Origin: a virus
Taxonomy: Duplodnaviria > Heunggongvirae > Uroviricota > Caudoviricetes
IMG/VR virus record: IMGVR_UViG_2737471852_000004
DNA length: 40,436 nucleotides
Reading direction: 5' to 3' (one strand)
Below the pieces are notes generated by a model, which saw nothing but the letters and a program-made list of their open reading frames with translations, was not told the DNA's origin and ran no database searches. Positions 1,773 to 40,436 of this stretch are shown piece by piece (position 1 is the stretch's first letter; every line of letters begins with the position of its first letter). Made by a program: the position numbers and the translations under genes.

Positions 1773-1973
1773 TTACCCATTGGCGCGGCTTAAGAGCTTA
1801 TTTTTGAATTCACAATGGTCACGATATAACCATCTTGCTCGCCCGTGGATAACTTTGGCTTTAGGCAGGTCTCCGGACTTAATCCGGTCGTAGATGAAGG
1901 TTTTACCGAAGCCAGTATCGGCCATGATGAATTTCAAATCAACCAGTGAATCAGGCTGTAGTTCGTGTTGCAT
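1773..1973 (-). CDS. xis: Excisionase / AlpA-family DNA-binding protein
   Basis: 66 aa; HTH pattern ...MADTGFGKTFIYDRIKSGDLPKAKVIHGRARWLYRDHCEFK matches AlpA/Xis family; RBS GGAG 6 nt upstream of ATG at 1973; terminal gene of leftward operon. Confidence 0.7.
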   Translation of the reverse strand: MQHELQPDSLVDLKFIMADTGFGKTFIYDRIKSGDLPKAKVIHGRARWLYRDHCEFKNKLLSRANG

Positions 1974-2015
1974 GAGTGCTATCTCCGAATAGGGAATCGA
2001 ACCTGCAAATCAGGT

Positions 2016-2038
2016 AAAAAAACCGCCATCAGGCGGCT
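2016..2038 (-). terminator. Intrinsic terminator on minus strand (stem CCGCC/GGCGG, loop TGAT, U7 tract)
   Basis: Minus-strand RNA reads AAGCCGCC-TGAT-GGCGG-TTTTTTT; sits 40 nt after the 3' end of the 2080-2379 gene. Confidence 0.6.
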
Positions 2039-2079
2039 TGGTGTTCTTTCAGTTCTTCAATTCGAATGTTGGTTACGTC

Positions 2080-2379
2080 TTATTCGATACGCACTCCTGG
2101 TATTTCGCCTTTTGATATTGCTAAGTCATAAATTTGCGCAGCACTATACCCATCTCGCATCCATGAATCTAAGGCGCGAACAGCCTCGCTACGCTTTTTA
2201 TCTTCTCTCTCATTTTTGATATCAACGAGGACATCAACGCAATTAAGGCAAATGTGGATTTTGTCCTTACATTCGATCATGGCTGCTTTACTATGATTTC
2301 CGCCACACAGTGAGCATAAATCTTCAGGGTCTGGCTGGTATTTCTGTAACGTTAGAGGGTTGAATGTTGAACAGGCCAT
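2080..2379 (-). CDS. Hypothetical Cys-rich (zinc-ribbon-like) protein
   Basis: ORF with CSLCGG...CLNC Cys pairs; start placed at third Met (2379), which has GGAG 6 nt upstream. Confidence 0.5.
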   Translation of the reverse strand: MACSTFNPLTLQKYQPDPEDLCSLCGGNHSKAAMIECKDKIHICLNCVDVLVDIKNEREDKKRSEAVRALDSWMRDGYSAAQIYDLAISKGEIPGVRIE

Positions 2380-2390
2380 AATCATCTCCA

Positions 2391-2415
2391 TAAAACAAAA
2401 CTCGCCGTAGCGAGT
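2391..2415 (-). terminator. Candidate intrinsic terminator on minus strand (stem ACTCGC/GCGAGT, loop TACG, U-rich tail)
   Basis: Minus-strand RNA reads ACTCGC-TACG-GCGAGT-TTTGTTTT between the ASCH-like gene and the Cys-rich gene. Confidence 0.45.
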
Positions 2416-2450
2416 TCAGATAAAAGAAATCCCCGCGAGTGCGAGGATTG

Positions 2451-2735
2451 TTATTCATTGCTGATATTCACCTTTATCGCGAACACCTTTACCGGTTTAT
2501 CACCGAAGTGCGGATGTGTGATTGTCTTGATTTCATATCCACCATACGGAACATCAATTCTGCGACTGGAATCGTCGCGCTTCGGATATCCCTTTGTGAT
2601 AATCAGGCGGTCATACTCCCGGAACATAATTCGCTTATTCCAGTAGTCATTACACAGGCGATACTCTTCCGTTTTCTCTCCGCGAATCATGGCATCGAAG
2701 TATTCACCTTTGACAGCAAGCTGTAGGTTAGCCAC
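2451..2735 (-). CDS. ASCH-like domain protein (hypothetical)
   Basis: N-terminus LAVKGEYFDAMIRGEKTEEYR resembles the start of ASCH/PUA-like domains; GTG start at 2735 has GGAGG 6 nt upstream and overlaps the upstream stop. Confidence 0.45.
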   Translation of the reverse strand: MANLQLAVKGEYFDAMIRGEKTEEYRLCNDYWNKRIMFREYDRLIITKGYPKRDDSSRRIDVPYGGYEIKTITHPHFGDKPVKVFAIKVNISNE

Positions 2736-3336
2736 GGTTAACCTCCAGTTGTGGTGCTGCCTCAATAGCAGCCCTGTAACCAGCAGCATGACCGCGAAAG
2801 TTAGCAATCTCTGATAGCCACGCTTTAATCATGGCCTGAGTTGGTTCCTTCGGCACCATAACCCAACCATCCTGAGTTACCGGAGAGTTGCCATCCAGCG
2901 CGTTCAACTTGTAAGCCTGGCTTACAGGTTCGGCACTATGAAGCATGGCAGCGCGGCAGGCGTTCCAGCCATCAACATAATCAAACGTATTGCTATCGTC
3001 TGGCTCGATTTCATCCGGCACTACCGGCTCTGGTTGGATAGTGACGTTGGCAAAGGCAGCACGCAAACCGGCCTTAATTTCCTCTACTTCATCAGCGCCT
3101 AGCGATGAATCTGACAATGCGTGATGGAATGCGTAAGCCATGTCGTCGTTTACTGCAACCGGTTCTGCTTCCAGCGATGCCAGTGCAATCCGTACCAGTT
3201 CCAGTTCCCGTTCAACCATCTCAAGAACAACTTTGCAGTCCTCACCTTCTTTGCTGGCACGTCCTTTCAAGTCTTCCAGATAACTAACGCTTTCGCGTGC
3301 ATGGGATATTAACTGTTCTTTGGTAATAGTGGTCAT
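2728..3336 (-). CDS. Hypothetical phage early protein (acidic, 202 aa)
   Basis: Long ORF, translationally coupled to neighbours; no recognisable motif. Confidence 0.55.
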   Translation of the reverse strand: MTTITKEQLISHARESVSYLEDLKGRASKEGEDCKVVLEMVERELELVRIALASLEAEPVAVNDDMAYAFHHALSDSSLGADEVEEIKAGLRAAFANVTIQPEPVVPDEIEPDDSNTFDYVDGWNACRAAMLHSAEPVSQAYKLNALDGNSPVTQDGWVMVPKEPTQAMIKAWLSEIANFRGHAAGYRAAIEAAPQLEVNRG

Positions 3337-3338
3337 AG

Positions 3339-3530
3339 CTATTTCACTTTAATCTCAACATTTCGCAGCTTTAGCTCTACTGGCAGGTCTGACTTTCCTG
3401 TTAATGCTAATGCGAGATTTTCAGGAGTAATGAGAGCAGTTATTGTTTTCCCCATTGCCAGACGAATAATCATTCGTATCTCGCGATCGTCACATGCTCC
3501 CGGTCGAACAATTGATATTTGTCCATTCAT
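3339..3530 (-). CDS. Hypothetical small protein (63 aa)
   Basis: ATG at 3530 has AGGAG 7 nt upstream, 1 nt after the Ead stop; the longer track ORF (to 3572) would overlap Ead by 41 nt. Confidence 0.4.
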   Translation of the reverse strand: MNGQISIVRPGACDDREIRMIIRLAMGKTITALITPENLALALTGKSDLPVELKLRNVEIKVK

Positions 3531-3531
3531 C

Positions 3532-4134
3532 TCACTCTCCTTTGATGCGAATGCCAGCGGCGCGGATTGCATCGATGACTTCAGAAACTTTGTATGCCAT
3601 TACCGTTTGGTAATCATCGTGAAAATCTGTTCGATGAAGCATGCTGCTACGTTCCGGGAGCAGTATTTCCCGATCCTCCAGTTCTGCTATGCGCTTCTCT
3701 GCGGATTCCAGCTTCTCGCGCATATCGTCAACGTACTCGACCAGAGAACCGCCAGCAGGAATTTCGCACTCCTCGACCAGTTGGAAGTAGATATCAGCTG
3801 CGGCCCGTGTGTTGCTATGCCTAGCGTCGCCCATCTCACCTTCACGAAGAGCATCGCGTTCGGCGGTAAGATTGGCTATTTTGCTGTCTTTGCCTTCAAG
3901 CTCAACGCGCAGCTTCCCTACCGTTAGCGCAATTTCCTCGTTCTCCTGGTCGCGGGATTTGATGTATTGCTGGTTTCTTTCCCGTTCATCCAGTAGTGCA
4001 AGCACAATGTGTGGCGTTATTAAGGACTCAAATTCGGCAACAGCTTGCTCACCTCGCTTGTAATTATTAATCCCACCTAAATCTTTCGCGTTCTGCGCCG
4101 CCTCACGCAGTGCCTGATAGTCAATCTTGCTCAT
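3532..4134 (-). CDS. Ead/Ea22-like family protein
   Basis: N-terminus MSKIDYQALREAAQNA... and coiled-coil middle are typical of Ead/Ea22-like proteins of P22-like and lambdoid prophages (recalled). Confidence 0.7.
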   Translation of the reverse strand: MSKIDYQALREAAQNAKDLGGINNYKRGEQAVAEFESLITPHIVLALLDERERNQQYIKSRDQENEEIALTVGKLRVELEGKDSKIANLTAERDALREGEMGDARHSNTRAAADIYFQLVEECEIPAGGSLVEYVDDMREKLESAEKRIAELEDREILLPERSSMLHRTDFHDDYQTVMAYKVSEVIDAIRAAGIRIKGE

Positions 4135-4135
4135 G

Positions 4136-4435
4136 TCACACCACCCTGAATCCGTTGCATTTACGTAAAAAATCGCAGATATAGCCCTTCATTTTTTCGT
4201 GCCAATCTCGATCATTCCCATTGCACCAACCATCAGGTGGAGTCCAGTTTTCTATCAGAGCAGCCATTTTCTTTGCTTTCGCCGGAGTAGCTGTTGCGGT
4301 ATCGCAGTAATGACGAGTGTCAACCAACGCATCCATACCATCGATATCAAGTACGCAAAACCATGTGTGATTCGGAATTCCTACAGGTGGTATTTGTTGC
4401 CCACGTCGACGTTTATCAATAAGATATACACTCAC
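4136..4435 (-). CDS. Hypothetical protein (99 aa, Cys/Trp-rich)
   Basis: GTG start at 4435 has AAGGAGG 6 nt upstream and overlaps the upstream stop (GTGA); stop is 1 nt before the Ead ATG. Confidence 0.5.
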
Positions 4436-4599
4436 TGCTTGCCTCCTTTGCGCCACATCGCATTCAGATATTTGTTTTGATTTACTGACGGAAAAGAATT
4501 TCTCTTAAGCAATTCCTCTCTCGATGGCATTGGCTTTACGCGTTGGCGAATAATCATTTCTGCTGGAAGAATGCCGGGATTGTATGCAAGTCCTCTCAT
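4432..4599 (-). CDS. Hypothetical small protein (55 aa)
   Basis: ATG at 4599 has GAGG 8 nt upstream; alternative ATG at 4617 overlaps the upstream stop. Confidence 0.35.
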
Positions 4600-4609
4600 G
4601 GTAAATTCC

Positions 4610-4903
4610 TCAGTCATTACTGATAGCGCCATAGCGTGAGCGGTAATTACGCAGGCGCGGGTCAATTTCAGGGAAGTGGGTATATGTGGCTTTGCGGAAT
4701 GGTCGGATTGATGTCTGGTAAATTCGCTCGCGTTCTTTTTTCTCTGCAAGCCAGATACAATGGCGAAATTCCTTTTCCTCTTTCGTTTCCTGCGGTAGCG
4801 ACATTATCAGGTCGTAGTTTTTTCTGAATTTATCCAGCACCTCCAATACGGAATTGCCGGAACAGCGGCGCGCGTCGTCCGCACCATACAGAGGCGCTGG
4901 CAT
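4610..4903 (-). CDS. Hypothetical protein (97 aa)
   Basis: ATG at 4903 has AAGGA 7 nt upstream. Confidence 0.5.
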
Positions 4904-4926
4904 AATGGAATCCTTATTTTGCTAAT

Positions 4927-5310
4927 TTAGAAGGGAATTGAATCGTCGTATTCAGGATGATTTTGATGATTGCTACTTTGTTGCTGTTGGCTGTTTCCTG
5001 AAGTTGCAAATCCAATCTTTGCATTCAGTAATTCAAGAGTGATTGATTGACCATTTTGCCCCTGATAAGCATCAACCCTGATGTTTTCTCCGGTAATTTC
5101 AACAATGCCTCCTTCAACCAGAACGCTACGGTAGTAATCCGCTTGCGCTCCCGGCTTGGCAAATACAACGGCGCTGTAGTTTGTCCATTCTTTCTTTTTT
5201 GTCTGGCGATCGTAATACTGAACGCCAGCACGGATGTTGAATCCGATATTTTCCCCGGCCTGAAACTCTCTTGCGGGCTTGTTTAGTCTTACAGTAATCG
5301 AATGTGCCAT
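4927..5310 (-). CDS. Compact SSB-like protein with acidic C-terminal tip (...PEYDDSIPF)
   Basis: C-terminus matches the bacterial SSB tail D-D-D-I-P-F; OB-fold-like core; ATG overlaps the Erf stop (TAATG). Confidence 0.55.
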   Translation of the reverse strand: MAHSITVRLNKPAREFQAGENIGFNIRAGVQYYDRQTKKKEWTNYSAVVFAKPGAQADYYRSVLVEGGIVEITGENIRVDAYQGQNGQSITLELLNAKIGFATSGNSQQQQSSNHQNHPEYDDSIPF

Positions 5311-5915
5311 TAAGCAGCAGCTCCTTCTAATTCGTCTCGTCTGATGTTGTAAACGTCCTGCGCTTTGTGCTGCTCAGGTGTGCCTTCGAGCATCTTCCAC
5401 GCTTTGGCGAACGCCTGTTTAAGCTCTTCTACGGTGTTTTTCTGCATTGCTGCGTCAGTGAATGCTTTTAGAACCTGTTCAGGTGTAGGTGATGGTTTTG
5501 ATTGCTTTGCTGCTGCGTTCTGCTGATGTTTATGCTCGTCTGTATCTGCATCTTTCGCATCATCTATGCCGAACAAACCATTGAGGCAATACTTGCGCGC
5601 ATAAGAGCTTGTAGCTCCAGTAACTTGTGCAGAATCCATTCCTTTCTTGCTTTCTTCCTCTCGTGCAAGAGCAGTTGCCGTATGACTGTTTTCGCCATCG
5701 GTAATAGTTGCCGTGGCTTTCACGTAATACCGATCACCAATCAACACAACTTCATCGCTGATTGATAAAAACAGGCCATTCAGTAACGGCTTAACGCCTT
5801 CAAGAATGTCTTCGCAGCTTCTGTATTTATATTTACCGAATGAGTTGTACTGATTCTTTGGCGCGTTCAGATTCTCCTGAATAGCTGCCAGTCTTGCGTA
5901 AAATTCTTTGCTCAT
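5310..5915 (-). CDS. erf: Erf-family single-strand annealing recombinase
   Basis: MSKEFYARLAAIQENLNAPKNQYNSFGKYKYRSCEDILEGVKPLL... is near-identical to phage P22 Erf as recalled; start at Met 5915, not the upstream track start. Confidence 0.9.
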   Translation of the reverse strand: MSKEFYARLAAIQENLNAPKNQYNSFGKYKYRSCEDILEGVKPLLNGLFLSISDEVVLIGDRYYVKATATITDGENSHTATALAREEESKKGMDSAQVTGATSSYARKYCLNGLFGIDDAKDADTDEHKHQQNAAAKQSKPSPTPEQVLKAFTDAAMQKNTVEELKQAFAKAWKMLEGTPEQHKAQDVYNIRRDELEGAAA

Positions 5916-5925
5916 ATGATTGTTC

Positions 5926-6096
5926 TCAGAATGGACACGGCCCAAGGAAATAACGCTGATTTAATACTTCGACTCTGGACAAGTTAAGGCATACCCGCAT
6001 TCCTTCGCGGTCACCATTATGGCGATACCAGAGAGCTTTCTGCGTGTACATGCGTCTCTGTAACTTGCTCTCCTTCACTGTGGTTGCAAGTGACAT
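5926..6096 (-). CDS. Small ORF (56 aa) in the position of P22 arf
   Basis: ATG at 6096 has AAGGAG 6 nt upstream; assignment by position only; a competing 52-aa ORF (6017-6175) overlaps in another frame. Confidence 0.3.
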   Translation of the reverse strand: MSLATTVKESKLQRRMYTQKALWYRHNGDREGMRVCLNLSRVEVLNQRYFLGPCPF

Positions 6097-6171
6097 GAAT
6101 ATCTCCTTCGTTACCGATTAATTCTTTCATCTGACGAATGAATTCTTCGTCTGACCAGTTATCTGTAAAAC

Positions 6172-6324
6172 TCATTTCCTGCGATACCACGGAAGGTTGA
6201 TAGCTGATTTCATCGCTTTATTTGCTTCAAGCCACATTTTTGAATCACCAATAAATCTGGCTATTACTGCTTTGTTTTGTGCAGCACGAAGCATCTGGTG
6301 ATTGATGGCTATTTCATTGCGCAT
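6172..6324 (-). CDS. Small ORF (50 aa), possible Kil-like host-division inhibitor
   Basis: ATG at 6324 has GAGGT 6 nt upstream; between cIII-like and erf as kil is in P22; motif ARFIGDSKMW is only tentatively Kil-like. Confidence 0.35.
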   Translation of the reverse strand: MRNEIAINHQMLRAAQNKAVIARFIGDSKMWLEANKAMKSAINLPWYRRK

Positions 6325-6440
6325 AATAAGACCTCAACTCTTTTCCATCCGTCACGTAATTTACGGGTGATTCGTTCAAGTAAAGATTCATTTAGTTGGA
6401 AGGCACCCATGCGAGCGCCTCCCGCGATTGCGTAAATCAT
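6309..6440 (-). CDS. cIII: CIII-like protein (FtsH inhibitor / lysogeny promoter)
   Basis: 43 aa MIYAIAGGARMGAFQLNESLLERITRKLRDGWKR...; the ESLLERITRKLRDGWKR core matches lambda CIII as recalled; AAGGA RBS. Confidence 0.65.
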   Translation of the reverse strand: MIYAIAGGARMGAFQLNESLLERITRKLRDGWKRVEVLLCAMK

Positions 6441-6464
6441 GGGTGGTTCCTTATGTTGGTTTTA

Positions 6465-7433
6465 TTAGTAGATTATTTTTGTTGCGAATACTTCGCCTTT
6501 TACGATGGCTGTTATGATATTTTTAGCAACATCTTCTGATGCGCCAACCTTGATAAGGTCAGCAAGTATTTTGTTATTTACTTCTTTTCGGTGAGCTTTA
6601 TCCTTTGCTCTACGCTCTTCTTCGTCCTTGATTCTTTTTTCTTCTGCTATTCTGGCTTGCTCTTTTGCTTCAGCCTCGCGCCGGATTCGTTCAGCCTCCT
6701 CCTGTGCTTTTCGGCGTTCTGCTTCAATTGCCGCCTGCTTTTCTCTTTCAGCTTGTTCTGCTGCCTCTTTTGCTTCGCGCTGTGCTCGTTGCTCGGCTTC
6801 AATGCGTTCACGCTCTGCACGTTCCGCTGCGGCCTTAGCTTCTGCTTCTCGCCTTGCTGCTGCTTCAATTTCGGCTTTTGCCTTTGCTTCGGCTTCAGCT
6901 CTGGCTTTCTCTTCAGCTTCTCTTTGTAAGCGTTCTTCATGCTCTCGCTTTTCCTTCTCCGCTTTGAGTCTTGCCTCTTCTCTTTGGCGGTCAAATTCGC
7001 GATCCATCAAAATCGCTATTTCATGGTCAGACTCAATTTGCTTTGCGAGAGCTTCAGCTGCTGCCTTAGCTTCTTCTTCGGCTTTAATCCGCGCCTGTTC
7101 TTCCTCATAATCAGTAAGAGGCTGGCGTGCCTTGGCTTTCAGCTCATCAAGGCGATCACGCACTGTCTTGCGGTTGGCATCAATTAGCTTTGGAATTTCC
7201 TTCAGTTCAGCAACAAGGTCTTTGCCAAGACCATCGAGATATGTTTTCGTCTGCGCAACTTTATACGCCAGAGAAGCGATCTCCTTTCTGCCCTTTGCCG
7301 TTGTGATATCAGGCACAAAGGACATAACTTCACGTTCAACCTTTTGGAGAATTTCTTCAATCTGGTCGGCAGACTGAAATACAGTCATTGCATTTGCTTT
7401 TTCAATAACAACTAAATCTGTTACTTCACTCAT
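6465..7433 (-). CDS. Hypothetical coiled-coil protein with about 180-aa E/A/K/R-rich low-complexity repeat
   Basis: Start at Met 7433 with GGAGG RBS (track ORF extends to 7487); N-terminal globular part, long AEAKA/EAERR repeat, short C-terminal domain. Confidence 0.6.
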   Translation of the reverse strand: MSEVTDLVVIEKANAMTVFQSADQIEEILQKVEREVMSFVPDITTAKGRKEIASLAYKVAQTKTYLDGLGKDLVAELKEIPKLIDANRKTVRDRLDELKAKARQPLTDYEEEQARIKAEEEAKAAAEALAKQIESDHEIAILMDREFDRQREEARLKAEKEKREHEERLQREAEEKARAEAEAKAKAEIEAAARREAEAKAAAERAERERIEAEQRAQREAKEAAEQAEREKQAAIEAERRKAQEEAERIRREAEAKEQARIAEEKRIKDEEERRAKDKAHRKEVNNKILADLIKVGASEDVAKNIITAIVKGEVFATKIIY

Positions 7434-7608
7434 ATATCCTCCATCAAAAAAATCGCCCTCACATCGGAGGGCAAAGAAGATTTCCAATAATCAGAACAAG
7501 TCGGCTCCTGTTTAGTTACGAGCGACATTGCTCCGTGTATTCACTCGTTGGAATGAATACACAGTGCAGTGTTTATTCTGTTGTTTATGCTAAAAATAAA
7601 GGCCACCA

Positions 7609-7860
7609 TCAGGCAGCCTTGTTGTAAATGTTGCAGGTATCAAGTAAGTAATTAGATGGAGCGCCATAAATTATGAATTCATCGTTTGTCGGGTCCATCT
7701 CCATCTCTTGGCCTATTGCCATTCTTGCGTCAGTGTCATCAGCGGCGAAGCATAAAACAGCCCACGCACCCATTGTTTTAAAAAGAACTGCAATTGGCTG
7801 TGGTTTTACTGAATTTGCGTTAGCGCGAAAATCACAAATCGCACTTTCATGAAACTCCAT
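7609..7860 (-). CDS. Hypothetical protein (83 aa)
   Basis: ATG at 7860 has GAGGTG 4 nt upstream. Confidence 0.5.
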   Translation of the reverse strand: MEFHESAICDFRANANSVKPQPIAVLFKTMGAWAVLCFAADDTDARMAIGQEMEMDPTNDEFIIYGAPSNYLLDTCNIYNKAA

Positions 7861-7914
7861 ATATCACCTCAAATAAGTGGTTTGCTGCGAAAGTAAATAC
7901 GCTTAAGTTACCTG

Positions 7915-8052
7915 TTATTTATCCCACCAAGTTCCGTATTTATCTATCCAGTTACACCAATCATCGACACTCCATTTTGTTGTGTCGCATTTTGGCAATT
8001 GGCATGAATATCTACCTTCTTTGTAAAGTCGGCGTTTGACTTTCTTGAGCAT
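7915..8052 (-). CDS. Hypothetical small Cys/Trp-rich protein (45 aa)
   Basis: Below the ORF-track cutoff; ATG at 8052 has GAGGT 4 nt upstream; translation MLKKVKRRLYKEGRYSCQLPKCDTTKWSVDDWCNWIDKYGTWWDK. Confidence 0.35.
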   Translation of the reverse strand: MLKKVKRRLYKEGRYSCQLPKCDTTKWSVDDWCNWIDKYGTWWDK

Positions 8053-8170
8053 GACTACCTCAATCGTAATAAGCTGGAATTGATTTTCCGCGTTGCTTCT
8101 GGCGGCCTGAGCAGGTCACACCCATTTCACTGCGTGGCTTGCTGTAATAAATTCGGTTAGTTCAGACAAT

Positions 8171-8190
8171 AAAAAACCCACCGAAGTGGG
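8171..8190 (-). terminator. Intrinsic terminator on minus strand (stem CCCAC/GTGGG, loop TTCG, U7 tract)
   Basis: Minus-strand RNA reads CCCAC-TTCG-GTGGG-TTTTTTT directly after the stop of the 8191-8529 gene. Confidence 0.6.
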
Positions 8191-8529: not shown

Positions 8530-8531
8530 AC

Positions 8532-8837: not shown

Positions 8838-8947
8838 GATGGTCTCCTTTAAGTGGCTTTGGCGCATGACGCGTCGAGGTGCTTATCTTCTCGATCGCTG
8901 TCTTGCAGCTGCAATTCGCGCCATCCCCAAAACCACTCAAGTTCTGG

Positions 8948-8987
8948 TCTCAACGGTTAGGTTGAGAGTCCGTCGATGTTAAAGAGC
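8948..8987 (-). promoter_or_regulatory. Candidate nutL: boxA-like GCTCTTTAACA followed by a 7-bp-stem hairpin (boxB-like)
   Basis: Minus-strand RNA has GGCTCTTTAACA then TCTCAAC-CTAACC-GTTGAGA between PL and the N-like start. Confidence 0.4.
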
Positions 8988-9029
8988 CTGCCAATCTGTT
9001 CCGTTTGGCTTCCAGCGTCCTGCTGATGA

Positions 9030-33457: not shown

Positions 33458-34044
33458 TGGATATTCTCTCTACACTTTTTCATCAGCAGAGCAGAAAAAT
33501 AGGAATGATTGTTCCCAGTGTTGTTATTTCAGAGAAGCATACAGATATGCTTGAAATAACAGAGCATCCGGTAGAGGTCGGGGCCGCTGTCGCTGATCAT
33601 GCCTATAAAAAACCGTCAGAAGTGGTGATGGAGGTTGGTTTCGCCGGTGGCGGCGCATTGCTGGATTTTGCCAGTAATCTGACGGCTACCAGCCTGCTCG
33701 GCCTGAGTCCTCAGCAGACGTATCAGGAGCTACTGGATCTGCAGGAAAGCCGTATCCCCTTCGATGTGGTAACCGGTAAACGACTGTACAGCAACATGTT
33801 GATCCGGGCGCTGGAAGTGACGACGGACAAGACAACCGAAAACGTCCTGTCCGCCGTCCTCACCCTGAGGGAGGTCCTTATCTCCCGGACGCAGCAGATT
33901 ACCGTCGCGGATAAAACCAACATGAAGGAAGGGGCCAGCACGTCGGCGGTACAGAATAGCGGCAACAAAACCACAAAGCCTCCAGATACTTCACTGCTGA
34001 AAAGCATCACGGGTAACGTGGCGTCATTACTGGGAGGCGGCTAA
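33457..34044 (+). CDS. Putative tail/baseplate protein
   Basis: 195 aa after tape measure; GTG start overlapping the TMP stop. Confidence 0.4.
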   Translation: MDILSTLFHQQSRKIGMIVPSVVISEKHTDMLEITEHPVEVGAAVADHAYKKPSEVVMEVGFAGGGALLDFASNLTATSLLGLSPQQTYQELLDLQESRIPFDVVTGKRLYSNMLIRALEVTTDKTTENVLSAVLTLREVLISRTQQITVADKTNMKEGASTSAVQNSGNKTTKPPDTSLLKSITGNVASLLGGG

Positions 34045-34346
34045 TGACAATTCAGGAAATTCCGCTGACAGCGGACAACCAGCAGTTCAGCATCGTCCTG
34101 GGTGGTGTCACTTGGCAGATTAGCATCATATGGCGCGATCCTTACTGGATTATGGACCTGCAGAACGACAGAGGAGAGCCGGTAATCTCCGGTATTCCTC
34201 TCGTCACTGGCGCTGATCTGCTGGCGCAGTACGCCTGTATGGGACTTGGTTTTAAGCTGTTGGTAGTCTGCGATGACAACACACAGGATTATCCCACGAA
34301 AACTGACCTGGGCGGGCGCAGTCATTTACTGGTATCAACGGAGTAA
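34044..34346 (+). CDS. Putative tail/baseplate protein (100 aa)
   Basis: TAATG-coupled ORF. Confidence 0.4.
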   Translation: MTIQEIPLTADNQQFSIVLGGVTWQISIIWRDPYWIMDLQNDRGEPVISGIPLVTGADLLAQYACMGLGFKLLVVCDDNTQDYPTKTDLGGRSHLLVSTE

Positions 34347-34348
34347 GC

Positions 34349-35413
34349 ATGTCACAGAACTGGATGAGACATTTCGAGCTGCAGCTTGTGGACGGGAACG
34401 GTAAGGGAATTGAGCTAAGTGATTTCAAAGTCACCTTTACGATTGACTGGTTCAACATCAGCAGCGCGTCCCGGGTAGGGACTATCAAAATTTATAACCT
34501 CTCGGCAGATACTGTGAACCGAATCACCGGGAAGGAATTTTCAAAAGTGCGGCTGATTGCCGGTTACGACAGTATCGCGCCGGAGGTGGCGGCAAGCGAC
34601 GTCGGGACCGTGCGCGAAGTCGACGCGGCAGATGTGGGCCAGAGTGATGGCCGCAACTACGGGCTGATTTTCAGCGGAGAAATTCGCTACTCGGTCACAG
34701 GAAAAGACAGCCCTATTGATTCCTATGTCCTGATTCAGGCAGCAGATACGGATCTGGCATTTGTCACCAGTATAACCTCACAGACGCTGGCTGCCGGTTA
34801 CACGGTCGCTGATGTAAACCGTGCGCTGATGAAAGACTTCGAAGCCAAAGGCGCGACCGAAGGCCTGACGCCTGAAATGCCTGCTACTGTATTCCCCCGG
34901 GGGCGGGTGCTCTTTGGCATGACGCGGCATCTTATGGATAACGTAGCCGGGCAATGTGGCGCAACATGGCAATTCGTGGACGGTCAACGCCAGATGGTGG
35001 CGAATAACGAATATGTTCATGAAGCGATTGTGCTCAACAGCGCCACCGGGCTTATCGGCATGCCGCAGCAGACTATCGGCAACGGCGTAAACGTCCGCGC
35101 GCTTATTAATCCGAACATCCGGGTTAATGGGCTCATTCAACTGGATCAGGCTTCCGTATATCGCACCGCGTTGTCGAACAACGATATTGCGATGGCTGGT
35201 GGGCAGATCACCGACCAGAACACGGACGGAAATATCACGCTAAGCGGCACCACAGCACAACCTGCCAGCATCGCAACGGATGGCGTTTATATTGTGCGCG
35301 GGATTATGTACACTGGCGATACAAGGGGCCAGGCGTGGTACATGGATATGATGTGCGAAGCGCGTGGCGCGGCGGATCTTGTTTCCTCATCAGCGAGGGA
35401 AAGAGGGCTTTAA
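34349..35413 (+). CDS. Putative baseplate hub protein
   Basis: 354 aa in the baseplate cluster upstream of the spike gene. Confidence 0.45.
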   Translation: MSQNWMRHFELQLVDGNGKGIELSDFKVTFTIDWFNISSASRVGTIKIYNLSADTVNRITGKEFSKVRLIAGYDSIAPEVAASDVGTVREVDAADVGQSDGRNYGLIFSGEIRYSVTGKDSPIDSYVLIQAADTDLAFVTSITSQTLAAGYTVADVNRALMKDFEAKGATEGLTPEMPATVFPRGRVLFGMTRHLMDNVAGQCGATWQFVDGQRQMVANNEYVHEAIVLNSATGLIGMPQQTIGNGVNVRALINPNIRVNGLIQLDQASVYRTALSNNDIAMAGGQITDQNTDGNITLSGTTAQPASIATDGVYIVRGIMYTGDTRGQAWYMDMMCEARGAADLVSSSARERGL

Positions 35414-35745
35414 TGAAACGGTTATGTTTGGCGTTAGTTATGATGGTTACTGCTCCGGCGATGGCTGCAATTCAGTGCGGCAACTACACGATGACCGGTG
35501 ACGGAATGACTGTTATTAACGGTGAAACTGTCACATCACAGAAGATAAAATTTCTGGGAAAAGATGGTGACTATTCAAACATAAAAATGGACATGGGCCT
35601 GATGCCTTCCCGTGATGGTAACAATTACGGCTTTGAGTTTGTGAAACGTAACGGAAAAGCTTTCCTGAATGTCCAACTGCTGCAGAACAGCATGGATGCG
35701 CCGAAAATCATCGGTTCCTTTCCATGCAAAAAGATTGTTGATTAA
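35413..35745 (+). CDS. Small secreted protein with cleavable signal peptide (moron candidate)
   Basis: MKRLCLALVMMVTAPAMA-AIQC...: positive n-region, hydrophobic core, AXA cleavage site; ATG overlaps upstream stop; unexpected inside a baseplate cluster. Confidence 0.55.
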   Translation: MKRLCLALVMMVTAPAMAAIQCGNYTMTGDGMTVINGETVTSQKIKFLGKDGDYSNIKMDMGLMPSRDGNNYGFEFVKRNGKAFLNVQLLQNSMDAPKIIGSFPCKKIVD

Positions 35746-35762
35746 TCACTCGTAATTATAAT
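35735..35762 (+). promoter_or_regulatory. Candidate sigma70 promoter for the small membrane protein gene (-35 TTGTTG, 16-bp spacer, -10 TATAAT)
   Basis: Perfect TATAAT at 35757-35762 in an AT-rich intergenic stretch. Confidence 0.4.
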
Positions 35763-35798
35763 GTGATACTTCTACTTTCACGATAAGGAATTTGTCGC

Positions 35799-36038
35799 AT
35801 GTTCGGATTTGATAAATTAATAACTCCAAAAATCATCAACGTTCTGTATGGCATCACAATGTTACTTCTGGTTGTTGCCGCCATTATAACGTTTGTTAAT
35901 GGGAAGGCTGCTGGCGCTTTAGTGCTTTTGTTATGTGCTGTATTTTGCCGAATATTCTTTGAGTGCATCATGGTTTCATTTAAAAACAATGAGTATCTTC
36001 GCCGAATAGCTGAAGCGTTAGAAGCAAACAAGCAGTAA
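35799..36038 (+). CDS. Small two-TM membrane protein (79 aa; moron candidate)
   Basis: Two hydrophobic helices (ILYGITMLLLVVAAIITFV and ALVLLLCAVFCRIFFECIMV); own promoter and terminator; AT-rich relative to neighbours. Confidence 0.5.
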   Translation: MFGFDKLITPKIINVLYGITMLLLVVAAIITFVNGKAAGALVLLLCAVFCRIFFECIMVSFKNNEYLRRIAEALEANKQ

Positions 36039-36054
36039 TGAAACTTCAATAATG

Positions 36055-36080
36055 AACCCGCCACCCGGCGGGTTTTTTGC
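36055..36080 (+). terminator. Intrinsic terminator after the membrane-protein gene (stem ACCCGCC/GGCGGGT, loop ACCC, U6)
   Basis: Perfect 7-bp GC stem then TTTTTT. Confidence 0.65.
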
Positions 36081-36097
36081 TTTCTGGAGCCTACTAA

Positions 36098-36853
36098 ATG
36101 GCAGTATCTGACCAGACCCGCAGCGGCGACCTTGCTGAAACATTCAAATCTGAACGGGAAACAACAAAGAACCAGATCCGTGTCGCCTTGCCTGGCATTG
36201 TTCAGTCATTCGATCCCGACGCGGTGACGGCGGTTGTGCAGCCAGCTATCCGTTCGGTTGAAAAGGATAACGACGGCAAGCGCATTACCAAAAATTACCC
36301 ATTGCTGGTGGATGTGCCAGTGGTATTCCCGAGCGGCGGAGGATGCACGCTAACGTTCCCAGTTAAAGCCGGTGATGAATGTTTGGTGATTTTTGCCGAT
36401 CGTTGTATTGATTTCTGGTGGCAGAGCGGCGGAATACAGGAACCGGTCGATGACAGAATGCATGATTTATCGGATGCGTTTTGTATCGTCGGTCCGCAGT
36501 CTCAGGCGCAGAAAATCAGCGGAATCAGCACCAGCGCCGCGCAACTGCGTACTGATGATGGCGCTGCGTTTGTGGAAGTGGCCGCAGGCCATAACATCAC
36601 GGTTAAAACCCCCGGCGCGCTGACGGCGACAGCAGAAGGAGGAACCACGATCACATCACCCACCATCACGCTAAACGGCAACGTGACAATAAACGGGAAT
36701 CTCTCTCAGGGGATGGGCGAAAGCGGCGGCACCGCGACGATGCTTGGCCCTGTCACGGTGACTAACGATGTAAAAGCTGGTGGTAAGAGCCTGATAACGC
36801 ACACGCACGGCGGAGTACAGACCGGCGGCGGTAACACAGGAGCGCCTAACTGA
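36098..36853 (+). CDS. Baseplate central spike protein (gp138 / gpV-like)
   Basis: N-terminal gp138-like domain (IRVALPGIVQSF..., ECLVIFADRCIDFWW) and C-terminal beta-helix with THTHGG. Confidence 0.7.
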   Translation: MAVSDQTRSGDLAETFKSERETTKNQIRVALPGIVQSFDPDAVTAVVQPAIRSVEKDNDGKRITKNYPLLVDVPVVFPSGGGCTLTFPVKAGDECLVIFADRCIDFWWQSGGIQEPVDDRMHDLSDAFCIVGPQSQAQKISGISTSAAQLRTDDGAAFVEVAAGHNITVKTPGALTATAEGGTTITSPTITLNGNVTINGNLSQGMGESGGTATMLGPVTVTNDVKAGGKSLITHTHGGVQTGGGNTGAPN

Positions 36854-37206
36854 TGCGATACAGACGTGAAGACGCCGATGGCGATTACACCTTTGGCAGC
36901 GGTGATGACACCTGGCTGATTAACTCACCGGAGGCCGTGGCGCAGGCGGTAAAAACGCGATTCGAATTGTGGTATGGGCAATGGTTTCTCGACACCACCG
37001 AGGGGACTCCGTGGATCCAGTCCGTACTCGGTAAGCAGAAGCCGGAAACCTACAACCTGGCGATCCGTAAGCGCATCCTCGAAACGCGGGGCGTTAAATC
37101 AATCCTCTCTTTCAATACGACGGTGGATACCACGACCCGACGTGTCATGTTTTCCGCTGAAATCGACACTCTTTATGGAATAACGACTGTTACATCGGAG
37201 GCGTAA
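36853..37206 (+). CDS. Baseplate wedge protein (gpW/gp25-like)
   Basis: 117 aa between spike and J-like genes; assignment mainly by position. Confidence 0.5.
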   Translation: MRYRREDADGDYTFGSGDDTWLINSPEAVAQAVKTRFELWYGQWFLDTTEGTPWIQSVLGKQKPETYNLAIRKRILETRGVKSILSFNTTVDTTTRRVMFSAEIDTLYGITTVTSEA

Positions 37207-38405
37207 TGGCTCTGAACCTTGATTCTCTCGGTTTATCTGCAAAGGTAACCGCGGAGGGGATCAGTGCGCCTGATTATCAGACGATACTCAGCACCCTGAT
37301 TAGCTATTTTCAGCAGATTTATGGCAGTGATGCCTACCTCGAACCGGACAGCAAAGACGGCCAGATGGTGGCTCTGATGGCGCTGGCGATTCATGATGCC
37401 AATAATATGGCGATAACTGTCTACAACTGTTTTTCACCGGCAACCGGCTATGGGGCTGCACTGACCAGTAACGTGAAAATAAATGGTATTTCACGTAAAG
37501 GCGCGACGAATTCTACGGTTGATTTGCTTCTTACAGGAACTGCCGGAACAACCATCATTAATGGCAGCGTGAAAGACAGTAATAATGTGATATGGCGTTT
37601 GCCTGCTTCAGTGGTGGTCGGCGTGGATGGTACAGTGATGGTGACCGCAAAATGTTCCGTCAGTGGTGCAGTGGCGGCGCTGGCTGGAACTATCACTGAA
37701 ATTAATACGCCAACCCGTGGCTGGGTTTCGGTAACCAATCCTGCTGCAGCTACTGTAGGCACTCCAGCAGAAACTGATGCGGAGTTACGTATCCGCCAGT
37801 CGCAAAGTGTTGCGTTGCCATCAATAACCCCATTTGAAGCACTGGATGGTGCTGTTTCTAATGTTACCGGTGTAACCCGCCACAAACTCTATGAAAACGA
37901 TACTGGTTCGGAGGACGGTAACGGGTTACCGCCACACTCTGTTGCTGTAATTGTGGATGGCGGTGATGTAACGGATATTGCTCAGGCTATCAGAGGAAAT
38001 AAAGGCCAGGGGACAGCCACTCACGGTACAACATCCGTTACGGTTCCGGATAAATACGGCAATCCCCATGTAATCAAATTCTCGCGTTCCAGTGATGTGC
38101 CTGTTTATGCCCGGATTAAATTAAAAGTTTTTACGGGTTATACCTCACAGATAGGGCAGCAGATCCAGCAGGCTATTTCCGACTATATCAATAGTCTGAT
38201 GATTGGTGATTCGGTCCTTTTAAGTCGCATTTACTCACCGGCGAATCTTGGCGTGGTGAGTAGCGGGAATGCACGCTATTACGATATTCAGGAACTGACG
38301 ATTGGGAAATCCCCGGGGGCTTTGTCGTCATCAAACATTGATATCAGATACAACGAATCTGCGTCCTGTACCCCGGAAAATATCGTTATAACGGTGGAGT
38401 CATGA
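37206..38405 (+). CDS. Baseplate J-like protein
   Basis: 399 aa; position and size fit the gpJ/gp47 baseplate family. Confidence 0.6.
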   Translation: MALNLDSLGLSAKVTAEGISAPDYQTILSTLISYFQQIYGSDAYLEPDSKDGQMVALMALAIHDANNMAITVYNCFSPATGYGAALTSNVKINGISRKGATNSTVDLLLTGTAGTTIINGSVKDSNNVIWRLPASVVVGVDGTVMVTAKCSVSGAVAALAGTITEINTPTRGWVSVTNPAAATVGTPAETDAELRIRQSQSVALPSITPFEALDGAVSNVTGVTRHKLYENDTGSEDGNGLPPHSVAVIVDGGDVTDIAQAIRGNKGQGTATHGTTSVTVPDKYGNPHVIKFSRSSDVPVYARIKLKVFTGYTSQIGQQIQQAISDYINSLMIGDSVLLSRIYSPANLGVVSSGNARYYDIQELTIGKSPGALSSSNIDIRYNESASCTPENIVITVES

Positions 38406-39082
38406 GCAAATACACCGAACTAATCACGAACTACCACGCCACCAAACCTAAATTTCTTGCGCATGTTGATCTGATGACCCGGCCACTTATTGATGTTGCG
38501 GCTGCCACCAGAGGGCTGATTACTGCATTTGATATTGACTCTGCGGTTGGTGTGCAACTTGACATTCTTGGATTGTGGATCGGACGTAGCCGTGTTGTCA
38601 GCCAGCCTATCTCAGGTGTCTATTTCAGCTGGGATACCGACGGGCTTGGATATGATCAGGGGGTATGGCAGGGACCATACGATCCTGATTCAGGATACAT
38701 GTATCTCAGCGATGAAACTTATCGTGTCATTCTTAAAGCGAAGATTGCGATTAATAACTGGGATGGACGGAATGATTCGCTTCCGGCAATTCTTGACGCG
38801 GCGACAGCAGGATCCGGACTGCGAATGCAGATAGTCGATAACCAGGACATGACGATATCGGTCTGGGTCTTTCCTGATACTGATATTTCAGATGTATCGC
38901 GTGAGTTAATTGCGGCAATTAAACAGGGGTATCTCACAGTAAAAGCCGCCGGGGTATGGGCGGGTGGCATTGAAACACCTTCGGTGGAAACCCCATCGGA
39001 AGGCTCAAAATTTTTTGGTTTTGATATGGATAACGAATTCATCAGTGGTTTTGATGTAGGAGCATGGGGAGTATTACTCTGA
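38402..39082 (+). CDS. Putative baseplate / tail-fiber attachment protein
   Basis: 226 aa; between J-like and fiber genes. Confidence 0.45.
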   Translation: MSKYTELITNYHATKPKFLAHVDLMTRPLIDVAAATRGLITAFDIDSAVGVQLDILGLWIGRSRVVSQPISGVYFSWDTDGLGYDQGVWQGPYDPDSGYMYLSDETYRVILKAKIAINNWDGRNDSLPAILDAATAGSGLRMQIVDNQDMTISVWVFPDTDISDVSRELIAAIKQGYLTVKAAGVWAGGIETPSVETPSEGSKFFGFDMDNEFISGFDVGAWGVLL

Positions 39083-40230
39083 TGGCGAAAAATGACTTTA
39101 AAGCGTTTGCAACGGATCGAAATGCCAATGTTATATCGCAGGAGGAATGGGAAGCGTTGCCCGCGCTTTTATCCGGATTTACAGCAGGGAAAGCCTCTAG
39201 TGCGCAAGTCAATAAGGTTATTCGGCAGGCCAGCTTTATTGCTGCAGCTCTGGCCCAGTTTGTAAGTGATAAAACGCAACGGGATGTGCTTGATAATGGT
39301 GATCTGCCCGGTTTTGTTGAATTGCTGGGATCGGGGTTTGCTGTTGAATACCTGAGCCGCAAGAATCCGTTTGGCGATATCAAATCGGATGGCACTGTGC
39401 AAACGGCTCTCGAAAACCTGGGAATGACAGACATTCTGAATGATAAACAGGATAAAAATGATAATCTGACATCATTGTCGAGCTTAACAGGAATACCGGA
39501 TGGGCTGGCATTTTTTACAGGTGCTGGAACAATGGATATGACAGCGCTGACTCAAAATGGTAGGGAAATTTTAAGTAAAAAAAACGTATCGGAAACTCTA
39601 CAATATTTAACACTTGGTGATGGAACAGGAAGGCTTTTGGGGGTTCAGGTATTTGGATCATCTGGGACTTATCACAAATCACCTGGTGTAACGAAAATTA
39701 TAGTGGAAGCCGTTGGCGGTGGTGGTGCCAGTGGCAATTTATCAGCAACAGCCTCAAATAACTGTGGTGTAAGTGCTGCCGGTTCCAACGGGGCATATGC
39801 TAAAGCATTTTTTTATCAGTCTATACCTGAATCCGTGCAAGTAACTATTGGAAGCGGTGGTGTAGCAGGAACAGGACCAGGAGGCTCTGGAGGTGACGGC
39901 GGGAATACAAGCTTTGGTGATTTGCTTGTATGCCCGGGAGGAAGGGGATCAACTCAAGTTCAGCAGGTACCTCCATTTTCAGGGGGAAGTGCAACAGAAG
40001 CACCAATTCCTACAGGGCAAGGGATTCTGTTCCATTCAGTTTCACGATCAAATTTATGTGGGGCACTTGGACTTGGTGATGATCAGGCGATTGGCGTTGA
40101 AAGTATAACCACTACTATGCTTGGGACATACGGTATTGGCGGGACAGGTAAATACAATAAGGCGTCATCAGGCCCAGCGACAGGAAATAATGGAAATCAG
40201 GGATATATTCTTGTGTGGGAGTATCAGTAA
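39082..40230 (+). CDS. Tail fiber protein with Gly-rich C-terminal region
   Basis: N-terminus MAKNDFKAFATDRNANVISQEEWEALPALLSGFTAGKASSAQVN typical of phage side tail fiber N-termini; Gly-rich distal half. Confidence 0.7.
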   Translation: MAKNDFKAFATDRNANVISQEEWEALPALLSGFTAGKASSAQVNKVIRQASFIAAALAQFVSDKTQRDVLDNGDLPGFVELLGSGFAVEYLSRKNPFGDIKSDGTVQTALENLGMTDILNDKQDKNDNLTSLSSLTGIPDGLAFFTGAGTMDMTALTQNGREILSKKNVSETLQYLTLGDGTGRLLGVQVFGSSGTYHKSPGVTKIIVEAVGGGGASGNLSATASNNCGVSAAGSNGAYAKAFFYQSIPESVQVTIGSGGVAGTGPGGSGGDGGNTSFGDLLVCPGGRGSTQVQQVPPFSGGSATEAPIPTGQGILFHSVSRSNLCGALGLGDDQAIGVESITTTMLGTYGIGGTGKYNKASSGPATGNNGNQGYILVWEYQ

Positions 40231-40436
40231 TGAGCGATATTTATGCAGTCGTACAAAATGGTGTCGTTACAAATCTTGTTGTATGGGATGGTAAGTCAGA
40301 GTTTAAGCCAGAAAAAGCGGATATAGTTAAATGTGTTGGAGATGTTGGTATTGGCTGGTTATATGATGGTGAAAAATTCATCAAGCCTTCCTTAAAACAA
40401 GACGACGTTATACTTACTGAGTGGAGAGCCAGTTAA
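40230..40436 (+). CDS. Small protein after tail fiber (possible tail fiber assembly/chaperone-like)
   Basis: 68 aa, TAATG-coupled to the fiber gene; window ends at its stop. Confidence 0.35.
   Translation: MSDIYAVVQNGVVTNLVVWDGKSEFKPEKADIVKCVGDVGIGWLYDGEKFIKPSLKQDDVILTEWRAS

Follow-up and report, generated by a model that had tools for sequence, protein, structure and literature searches.

A mosaic lambdoid Escherichia coli prophage combining imm21/P22-class immunity, lambda-type late control and a SEN34-type contractile-tail module

The DNA considered here is record IMGVR_UViG_2737471852_000004 of the IMG/VR virus collection; all of its 40,436 nucleotides were analysed, and this whole stretch is indicated below as the window. 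From position 1686 to its end, the window most likely (with a probability of about 0.9) contains some 38.7 kb of a mosaic lambdoid temperate prophage of Escherichia coli, which features an argW-type attachment (att) site, a repressor of the imm21/P22 class, late control of the lambda type and a contractile-tail module of the type found in phage SEN34. Gene content, homologies and breakpoints were observed directly. An initial annotation, made from the letters alone, had described a three-way mosaic of P22-type immunity, lambda-type nin, Q and lysis genes, and a contractile-tail module with a Mu-like head, as in SfV-like phages.

Each open reading frame (ORF) of the window was compared, by tblastn and blastn, with P22, lambda, SfV, Mu, SEN34, HK544, Sf6, HK022, phage 21 and two E. 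coli chromosomal regions. Families were assigned by Pfam and PHROG, homologues of solved structure were found by sequence searches of PDB, and further scans were made with PADLOC, NCBIfam and Rfam. Recurrence was counted in 5426 complete E. coli genomes.

Immunity, replication and late control genes

From 8615 to 10519 the window is 97.4% identical at the nucleotide (nt) level to coliphage 21, as compared to 83.6% with P22, over 8973–10086; on these figures, P22 was replaced by phage 21 as the donor of the immunity region. The prophage repressor (9152–9802, minus strand) is a LexA-like protein of the S24 family, 216 amino acids (aa) long, 100% identical in aa to the phage 21 protein and 94% to P22 C2. 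It keeps the Ala-Gly cleavage site and the GDSM and FKKL motifs, both the Ser and the Lys motif being conserved, and its DNA-binding domain differs from that of P22 C2 in 2 of the 66 N-terminal residues. The OL operators with PL, located approximately at 9030–9115 (minus strand), are near-identical to P22 OL and 97.4% identical in nt to phage 21, while the OR operators with PRM and PR (9803–9870, unstranded) carry four substitutions relative to the P22 OR region. The cro gene (9883–10068, plus strand) encodes 61 aa, 100% identical to phage 21 and 98% to P22 Cro. Divergent PL and PR promoters around a cI-type repressor and cro, with their operators, are the arrangement of lambdoid phages.

Both early operons also feature boxA/boxB nut sites, along with an N-type antiterminator. 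The nutL site (8948–8987, minus strand), composed of boxA GCTCTTTAAC and the boxB hairpin TCTCAACCTAACCGTTGAGA, is identical to the annotated boxA-L/nutL of phage 21; nutR (10076–10114, plus strand), with the same boxA and boxB TCACCTCTAATCGGGTGA, is one base off phage 21 nutR. Similarity to P22 stops just past the nutR boxA. The N gene (8532–8867, minus strand) is of the phage 21 type, with the arginine-rich motif GTAKSRYKARRAELIAERR: its product is 79% identical to the phage 21 "antiterminator" and 97% to N of phage mEpX1 (phrog_271, 1e-29). A string search of the literature for this arginine-rich motif returned nothing.

HK022 alleles flank this immunity core. On one side lies nun (8191–8535, minus strand), for an HK022-type transcription-termination (exclusion) factor, 97% identical in aa to the HK022 nun region (phrog_5632, "Nun-like", 5e-71); on the other, a cII-like activator gene (10183–10479, plus strand), 98% identical to HK022, 89% to phage 21 and 35% to lambda cII, to which P22 c1 showed no match. 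The erf gene is also of HK022 type (97–98% aa). The nun gene stands directly downstream of N (8191–8867, minus strand), an N-nun tandem already annotated in mEpX1. The last 80 or so codons of N, once translated, match at 56% the annotated putL region of the HK022-like phages HK75 and O276, and there are hints, at the sequence level, of a common ancestry of the putL region and this N gene.

The identification of c2, cro and erf as P22-like holds, at 94%, 98% and 75% identity to P22 C2, Cro and Erf. As to the "P22-type immunity" of the initial annotation, it stands as a specificity class, given the two differences in 66 residues and the near-identical OR and OL, but not as a source: with its repressor and Cro at 100% and N and nut of the 21 type, the region is more exactly imm21. 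The repressor DNA-binding domain and the operators are those of the imm21/P22 immC specificity. To P22 immI (mnt-arc-ant) the window showed no similarity.

Rightward of cII, the replication genes (10512–12854, plus strand) are 98.1% identical in nt to HK544, and include a 53-aa ORF, an O-like initiator (10660–11481; 51% to P22 gp18) and a DnaB-type helicase (11478–12854; 90% to P22 gp12). The nin region follows (12910–16316, plus strand), in the order ninB, a Dam methyltransferase gene (13305–13892), ninE, ninX, ninF, an 89-aa ORF (14590–14859), ninG, ninH and the NinI phosphatase gene. Next is the late antiterminator gene Q (16313–16936, plus strand), of lambda type, its product being 100% identical in aa to lambda Q and 98% to P22 gp23. 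Two blocks are shared with lambda at the nt level, 12851–13368 at 97.9% and 14856–17036, corresponding to lambda 42429–44609, unbroken at 97.3%. With NinB at 99% identity, NinG at 98%, NinH at 100%, the NinI phosphatase at 97%, Q at 100%, S at 99% and R at 98%, the lambda-like character attributed to NinB-NinH, phosphatase, Q, S and R was confirmed (97–100% aa).

The late control region (16979–17078, plus strand) is composed of PR' (TTGACT-17-TAAATT), the qut region and tR', a strong hairpin of 13 bp (17041–17069) followed by a T run. From the -35 hexamer to 17036, where lambda similarity stops, PR'/qut differs from lambda by 5 mismatches in about 58 bases. The lysis cassette (17370–18587, plus strand) encodes the S holin, the R transglycosylase and the Rz spanin. 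For Rz, identity is 90% with P22 gp15, against 58% with lambda Rz; judged from these values, the cassette is itself mosaic, S and R being of lambda type and Rz of P22 type. The order cII, O/P replication, nin, Q, PR'/qut, holin/endolysin/spanin and virion genes is that of lambdoid phages.

The virion module and its boundary

The late half of the window, from about 20.1 to 40.4 kb, is a complete contractile-tail virion module; from 17370 to 40436, all confidently assigned genes are on the plus strand, separated by short gaps. Packaging genes come first (20116–22346, plus strand), with a small terminase subunit (Terminase_2; PF03592, 6e-41) and a large one (TerL, 540 aa; phrog_2), the nuclease domain of which matches Sf6 gp2 (PDB 4IDH, 5e-27). 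The head genes (22346–27133, plus strand) encode the portal (PF06381), a minor head protein with a MuF domain (PF04233, 3e-18), located at 23664–24437 and adjoining the portal gene, a protease/scaffold-like DUF2213 protein, which matches "head maturation protease" PHROGs, a cement/decoration protein and the major capsid protein (PF09950). In PDB, the portal and the capsid match those of Pam3 (8e-36 and 5.5e-19), and the E217 portal was matched as well. A 73-aa ORF, a DUF4054 protein, a Neck1/tail-completion protein, a head-tail adaptor-like protein and a neck/tail terminator form the head-tail connector genes (27176–29235, plus strand), in agreement with the SEN34 annotation.

The tail genes start with the sheath (DUF3383, PF11863; 381 aa), the tube (146 aa) and the tail assembly chaperone (29239–31291, plus strand), with Pfam scores of 7e-101, 1e-59 and 3e-32; the tube family is KPP10_Orf10 (PF11681). 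The sheath matches gp6 of PDB 7KH1 (9e-41) and the Pam3 sheath (1e-24), and the tube matches that of Pam3 (1.6e-8). A tape measure protein (669 aa), a Dit-like baseplate protein, a plug similar to Pam3 gp18 and the baseplate hub follow (31448–35413, plus strand), at 82–92% aa identity to their SEN34 homologues. The remaining baseplate genes (36098–39082, plus strand) encode the membrane-puncturing spike, a gp25-like wedge, a Baseplate_J wedge (9e-16) and a DUF2612 protein. The spike features a PF18352 N-terminal domain (5e-44) and an Apex motif, and matches PDB 3PQI, the "gene product 138" of phi92 (5e-5), and the E217 spike; it was identified through accession PF18352 and entry 3PQI, PDB entry 21vq_t also carrying the family name. 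Sheath, tube, gp138-like spike and J-like baseplate had all been named correctly in the initial annotation, and each of the four matches a protein of solved structure. The set is that of contractile tails: sheath, tube, tape measure and chaperone, and a baseplate with hub, spike, gp25-like, J-like and gp7-like/DUF2612 wedge proteins.

The last genes (39064–40436, plus strand) are a tail fibre gene (388 aa; Gly_rich_2, 2e-7), with a conserved N-terminus and a variable glycine-rich C-terminus, and the first part of a gene that runs past the window end and, from its place, would encode a tail-fibre assembly protein. The first 120 or so residues of the fibre are 98% identical to phage 611R5, and the whole protein is 99% identical to a region of the E. 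coli E41 prophage (NZ_CP069707). In comparison with the nearest E. coli relatives, the C-terminal part of the spike (36562–36792) and the C-terminal two thirds of the fibre (39422–40388) have been exchanged: the spike shares 93% aa identity with SEN34 and about 70% with E41 and 611R5, and the fibre matches E41 only. Host range is probably determined by these ends, which would be traded as modules smaller than a gene.

Many of the Pfam families found are named after Pam3, XM1, E217 or KPP10 proteins: Phage_portal_3, XM1_gp53/Phage_cement, Major_capside (PF09950), Phage_tail_terminator_9, DUF3383, KPP10_Orf10, Phage_TAC_15, Dit_like, Pam3_gp18 and, weakly, E217_GP41. These families place the virion module in the structural lineage of Pam3, XM1 and E217.

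At the DNA level, the late half is closest to E. coli prophages (96–99% nt), and 88 of the 5426 complete genomes hold at least 80% of 17000–40436 in one place. In E. coli genomes carrying the late module, the junction from lysis to terminase is contiguous. Phages vB_EcoM-606R2, 611R5, 683R1 and 689R2 contain the module at about 95% nt identity. With SEN34 synteny is perfect from terL to the tail fibre, at 76–86% nt and 65–97% aa identity.

Between lysis and virion genes, a non-coding sequence of about 300 bp (19371–19676, unstranded) marks the right end of the lambdoid early and lysis homology. It is common to HK022 (93.8%), P22 (92.1%), Sf6, HK544 and E41, with 92–98% nt identity overall. Among the matches listed, those of lambdoid phages end at 19676 in 24 cases out of 25, and at 19656 in the remaining one, whatever the virion type. 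Sf6 has its gene 66 inserted within this boundary sequence, which may serve in recombination, as a linker, or in regulation. Similarity to the late module starts at 20105 in EJN001, at 20174 in E41, at 20531 in 611R5 and at 20683 in SEN34, which places the boundary of the module within or just before terS. The G+C content steps from 0.47 to 0.56 at about 20.7–21 kb.

Junctions, accessory genes and the left end

The junctions named in the initial annotation, near 8.9, 12.9, 17.0–17.2 and 18.6–19.7 kb, fall on real homology breakpoints, located at 8615/8973, 12851–12916, 17036–17199, 18641 and from 19676 to 20105/20174. At about 8.6–9.0 kb, resemblance to phage 21 sets in at 8615, and that to P22 at 8973. 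The match to lambda breaks off at 17036, 20 nt past the PR' start, and returns before S, with a P22/HK544-type leader in between, up to 17199. The E41 block ends at 18641, after Rz. As for the cargo expected at these junctions, a modest amount is present, represented by nun, the Dam methylase, KilA-N, an HNH endonuclease and a DUF4282 moron; at two of the sites there is none, since 12.9 kb is a short ninA/tR2 linker, common to lambda and Sf6, and 17.0–17.2 kb is the PR'/qut/tR' leader.

The KilA-N domain protein (18789–19310, plus strand; PF04383, 8e-22) is encoded between lysis and packaging genes, within a block 98% identical in nt to HK544, where KilA-N is annotated. When the junction ORFs were scanned, PADLOC gave only a weak PDC-S22 match, to the KilA-N domain, and NCBIfam nothing. 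Just upstream of terS, a gene of 165 codons (19668–20165, plus strand) encodes an HNH_3/His-Me finger endonuclease (PF13392, 1.5e-9). E41, EJN001, SEN34 and 611R5 lack it, and only 14 complete E. coli genomes have it together with terS; because of this sporadic distribution it is probably a homing-type insertion.

Inside the baseplate cluster, between hub and spike genes, a variable island (35335–36097, plus strand) contains a 136-aa ORF (phrog_3443), the gene for a DUF4282 membrane protein of 79 aa with two (transmembrane) helices (35799–36038) and a strong terminator (36054–36075). Its stretch 35746–36054 is absent from SEN34, 611R5 and E41, which have other genes in the slot, and is present in 83 complete E. 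coli genomes. Matches to the hub-spike slot occur in 237 E. coli genomes, and its layout is moron-like. Putative and rather doubtful is the further proposal that the slot (35.4–36.1 kb) is a dedicated moron hotspot, with the DUF4282 protein as an exclusion or defence factor expressed in the lysogen, or that the HNH protein is a terminase partner like HK97 gp74 and not a selfish homing gene.

The Dam-family N6-adenine methyltransferase gene of the nin region (PF05869, 9e-65) occupies the slot of lambda ninC. As listed, its ORF (195 aa, with GTG at 13305) overlaps the 3' end of ninB; the true start is probably near 13365, because the HK544 homologue starts right after ninB. The 90% match to lambda of the first 21 residues falls in the ninB overlap, just upstream of lambda ninC. 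The 89-aa ORF located between ninF and ninG (phrog_1258) has no match in Pfam, NCBIfam or PADLOC. The same is true of an 83-aa ORF in the ral slot (7609–7860, minus strand; phrog_2471), without assigned function, for which P22, lambda, HK544 and Sf6 also gave no match. Both ORFs are located at known moron slots.

At the left end, a host gene for a cscB-type oligosaccharide (sucrose) transporter of the major facilitator superfamily (1–1248, plus strand) precedes the prophage; the protein is 100% identical in aa to an "oligosaccharide MFS transporter" of E. coli EJN001, and 1–2037 is 98.2% identical in nt to the EJN001 chromosome. Homology to a temperate phage, Sf6, begins at 1685, at the annotated Sf6 "attP core". 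The att core TGGTGTCCCCTGCAG (1686–1700) marks the left prophage end; it equals the Sf6/HK620 attP core, and is the complement of the tRNA 3' end ...CCTGCAGGGGACACCA. By analogy with Sf6, HK620 and KplE1, the tRNA gene is taken to be argW. Close by lies a torI-type excisionase gene (1773–1973, minus strand), encoding 66 aa, 100% identical to the EJN001 "response regulator inhibitor TorI"; att, torI and the gene 19 stretch are 97.8% identical in nt to Sf6. In Sf6, HK620 and KplE1 the integrase is encoded at the opposite prophage end, and since the torI side fits this arrangement, the integrase gene is expected at the far end here as well.

Six early-left accessory ("ea") ORFs, without assigned functions but with Pfam and PHROG matches, are found at 2080–4456 on the minus strand: 2080–2391 (similar to Sf6 gene 19), 2451–2807, 2728–3336, 3339–3572, 3532–4134 (Ead/Ea22) and 4136–4456 (DUF7739). 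None of them has a PADLOC or NCBIfam match. The recombination module (4432–5945, minus strand) includes a DUF2737 ORF, the anti-RecBCD gene abc2 (4610–4903), an ORF similar to HK97 gp40 and related to single-stranded DNA-binding proteins (4927–5310), and erf (5310–5945). Abc2 is 92% identical to P22 Abc2, and Erf 75% identical to P22 and 98% to HK022. Small genes of the PL operon (similar to HK97 gp42, kil and cIII) and the gene for a 340-aa protein similar to Sf6 gene 33 (6465–7487) follow at 5926–7487 (minus strand), with 96–98% nt identity to HK544 and Sf6, from the annotations of which their names are taken; overall, 4451–7625 is 96.7% identical in nt to HK544. No tRNA or transfer-messenger RNA gene was found in the window, and no Rfam family reached its gathering score in any part of it.

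Origin, proposed working and relation to known phages

The layout suggested at the outset, in which lambdoid immunity, antitermination and lysis genes precede a virion module of the contractile-tail kind and exchange took place at the junctions named, is borne out by tblastn and blastn, Pfam and PDB matches alike. A three-way mosaic is too coarse a description: an imm21 core, nun, cII and erf of HK022, nin and Q of lambda, an Rz of P22 type and a SEN34-type virion can be told apart, and the donors, as judged from the similarities, are by far more than three. The alignments point to an origin by the usual exchange of modules among lambdoid phages, at boundary sequences that are short and conserved. 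The long blocks of 93–98% nt identity common to lambda suggest that viable hybrids with lambda could arise by recombination. The element is not P22-like (Lederbergvirus): of the gp1 portal, gp5 coat and gp9 tailspike of that group, or of its immI genes mnt-arc-ant, there is no sign, blastn and tblastn giving no match to P22 1–21000.

The homologues suggest how such a prophage would be regulated, induced and packaged, and the shape of its particles. The LexA-like repressor of imm21 type would shut OL/PL and OR/PR, setting the immunity specificity (imm21/P22 immC type), and Nun, a probable product of the lysogenic state as it is in HK022, would act at the nut sites of superinfecting phages of lambda type, blocking them. 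Self-cleavage of the repressor, stimulated by RecA in the SOS response, would free PL and PR; N of the 21 type, acting on the matching nutL and nutR, would then carry transcription leftward through erf and abc2, and rightward through O, the helicase and nin genes to Q. Loaded onto RNA polymerase at PR'/qut, Q would allow passage of tR' (17041–17078) and of later terminators, to give a single long rightward late operon of S, R, the P22-type Rz, KilA-N and HNH genes, and then the virion module. Packaging is probably headful, as suggested by the similarity of the TerL nuclease to that of Sf6 gp2. The particles are expected to have contractile tails: the genes are present here, and electron microscopy (EM) of SEN34, which has the homologous module, showed an icosahedral head and a long contractile tail (PMC5261728).

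A number of points weigh against this interpretation. The window does not include an integrase gene; the prophage leaves it at the right end, within the tail-fibre genes, so that the right prophage end also lies outside, and the prophage is only presumably complete and inducible. The exact whole combination is not found in any single record of the collections, the best of which covers 63% of window 1–25000. Homoimmunity with P22 or phage 21 is a prediction made from sequence; phage 21 and P22 immC are reported to be of one specificity in hybrid-phage work of the 1970s, and no literature support for 21/P22 homoimmunity was found in the papers searched. That the whole late module would be driven from PR' is suggested by gene orientation and lambda biology, and strong internal terminators, such as that at 36054–36075, may speak against one operon, as may possible internal promoters. 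Headful packaging is predicted from TerL similarity to Sf6 gp2 only, and the authors of the SEN34 study could not identify a packaging site (PMC5261728).

The first of these points would also be expected of a defective (cryptic) prophage, or of a domesticated, tail-producing element no longer able to form plaques: the integrase and the right end lie beyond the window, and some E. coli relatives contain insertion sequence (IS) elements and pseudogenes, represented by a fibre pseudogene in E41 and IS elements in two other matches. Yet all of the about 50 genes with a close full-length homologue run full length, terminase, portal and capsid included, genes that would be missing from a tailocin; intact as well are the repressor, the operators, N/nut and Q/qut, and close relatives (vB_EcoM-606R2/611R5, SEN34) are deposited as phages. 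A defective element is therefore unlikely, if clearly the best of the alternatives.

An SfV-like phage, with a Mu-type head and a Mu-type contractile tail under lambdoid regulation, as read by the initial annotation, is far less probable, and at the level of sequence families it is refuted. In its favour, a MuF domain is indeed present, but this domain is widespread (SPP1 gp7 family) and not definitive of a Mu-like head; the portal is PF06381 and not Portal_Mu, the capsid PF09950 and not Mu-like_gpT. TerL (29%, gp28) and baseplate J (26%, gp47) are the only tblastn matches to Mu, and SfV shares with the window, outside lambdoid genes, only a 68-bp stretch (24 residues) of the tail-fibre N-terminus, in SfV orf21. 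No match was found, by tblastn at E <= 1e-3, between the window and the portal, capsid, sheath, tube or spike of Mu and SfV. The families differ throughout: PF06074/PF04860, PF10124/PF05065, PF04984 (with PF17481/PF17482), PF10618 and PF06890 in Mu and SfV, against PF06381, PF09950, PF11863, PF11681 and PF18352 in the window. SfV-like phages combine HK97-type portal and capsid (PF04860, PF05065) with the Mu-type sheath (PF04984), and this combination is not found here. The likeness to SfV stands as an analogy of architecture, not as homology, since no core gene of head or tail is common to the two.

Least credible of all is an assembly chimera, in which two unrelated prophages, one lambdoid and one of myovirus type, would have been misjoined at about 19.7–20.2 kb: the sharp G+C step and the loss of all lambdoid phage homology at 19676 might suggest it, but the junction (19560–20260) is contiguous at 96–99.4% in 14 complete genomes, lysis genes and late module occur together in the 88 genomes mentioned above, and SEN34 has the same architecture in a sequenced virion genome.

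The interpretation as a mosaic lambdoid prophage is thus retained. Each of its segments is 93–100% identical to publicly deposited sequences, and while the element is new as a mosaic, the prophage type to which it belongs is known, common and already published. Nor is the combination without precedent: the SEN34 architecture was published in 2017, and the E41 prophage has the same immunity, nin/Q/lysis genes and late module. No new biology is implied, as this type of prophage occurs in about 2% of complete E. coli genomes; E. coli EH08-18-36 carries another one. As an example of lambdoid modular exchange, it shows one and the same boundary of about 300 bp leading into virion modules of podovirus (P22, Sf6), siphovirus (HK97, HK544) and myovirus (SEN34-type) kind. 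For annotation, the suitable label is imm21, lambda-Q, SEN34-type myovirus, rather than SfV-like or Mu-like, and the structural genes can be named from the solved Pam3, XM1 and E217 structures.

Among its relatives, SEN34 was described in 2017 as having a lambda-like regulation and replication half with Myoviridae morphology, and as the prototype of a new lambda cluster (PMC5261728). As in the window, its virion module is preceded by lambdoid early genes, a Q-like antiterminator gene and a cassette of holin and endolysin. Its early half, in contrast, is essentially unrelated in nt, only about 100 bp in O being matched: repressor, integrase and att are different, exo/bet/gam replace erf/abc2, replication is of lambda P type, and Q is 26% identical. 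The alignment extends over about 17.9 kb at 72–86%, all but 100 bp in the virion half, which, weighted by identity, corresponds to about 35% of the 40.7-kb SEN34 genome. The usual genus line of the International Committee on Taxonomy of Viruses is about 70% nt identity over the whole genome length; genome-wide identity thus falls short of membership in Brunovirus, of which SEN34 is the type species, and what is shared is the syntenic virion module.

The E41 prophage is the best overall match, aligning with 7447–40388 in blocks of 91–99% nt (94–99%, if one 508-bp block is excepted), with gaps at 18642–19374, 19705–20173 and in two short stretches of the spike region. It shares nun, the 21-type N, the imm21 repressor and cro, O, the helicase, nin, Q, S/R/Rz and the late module; it differs in its own lambda-type left arm with exo/bet/gam, in lacking KilA-N and HNH, and in the genes of the hub-spike island. 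EJN001 has in common the cscB flank, att, torI and the genes from terS to the neck. In 611R5 the late module is found at 94–98% nt, but the early region (1–17000) is different, encoding a DNA polymerase, a helicase, a TIR-like protein, another repressor and another Q; the presence of the same module on this early region suggests that it moves between non-lambdoid and lambdoid backbones, with a breakpoint inside terS.

HK022, HK97, HK544, Sf6 and HK620 resemble the window in nun, cII and erf (97–98% aa to HK022) and over 4451–7625 and 10487–19565 (94–98% nt to HK544), but right of 19676 they feature HK97-type siphovirus or P22-type podovirus modules. With phage 21 the repressor and Cro are identical and the nut sites nearly so; N, in contrast, is only 79% identical, its 3' part being HK022-like in the window, cII is at 89% (98% to HK022), and phage 21's own Q, pinholin/SAR (signal-arrest-release) endolysin and lambda-type O/P are absent. 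P22 immC is similar in repressor (94%), Cro (98%) and the almost identical OR and OL, its immI having no counterpart in the window. Lambda shares ninB and the stretch ninG-ninH-ninI-Q-PR'/qut at 97–98% nt, and S and R at 93% nt (98–99% aa); unlike lambda, the window has a Dam methylase in place of ninC, ninX and the 89-aa ORF inserted, a 6S/tR' segment of P22/HK544 type past +20, a P22-type Rz, and KilA-N in place of bor. SfV has lambdoid early genes and a contractile tail as well, with R at 88% aa, Q at 35% and the repressor at 41%, but its portal and capsid are of HK97 type; Mu shares the MuF domain, its sheath, tube and gp45 spike coming from other families. Finally, Pam3, Vibrio phage XM1 and Pseudomonas phage E217 correspond to the window in portal, capsid, cement, sheath, tube, plug, hub, spike and wedge (PDB matches from 1e-8 to 9e-41); their similarity is distant, at phmmer level only, and these phages have other hosts and no lambdoid regulation module.

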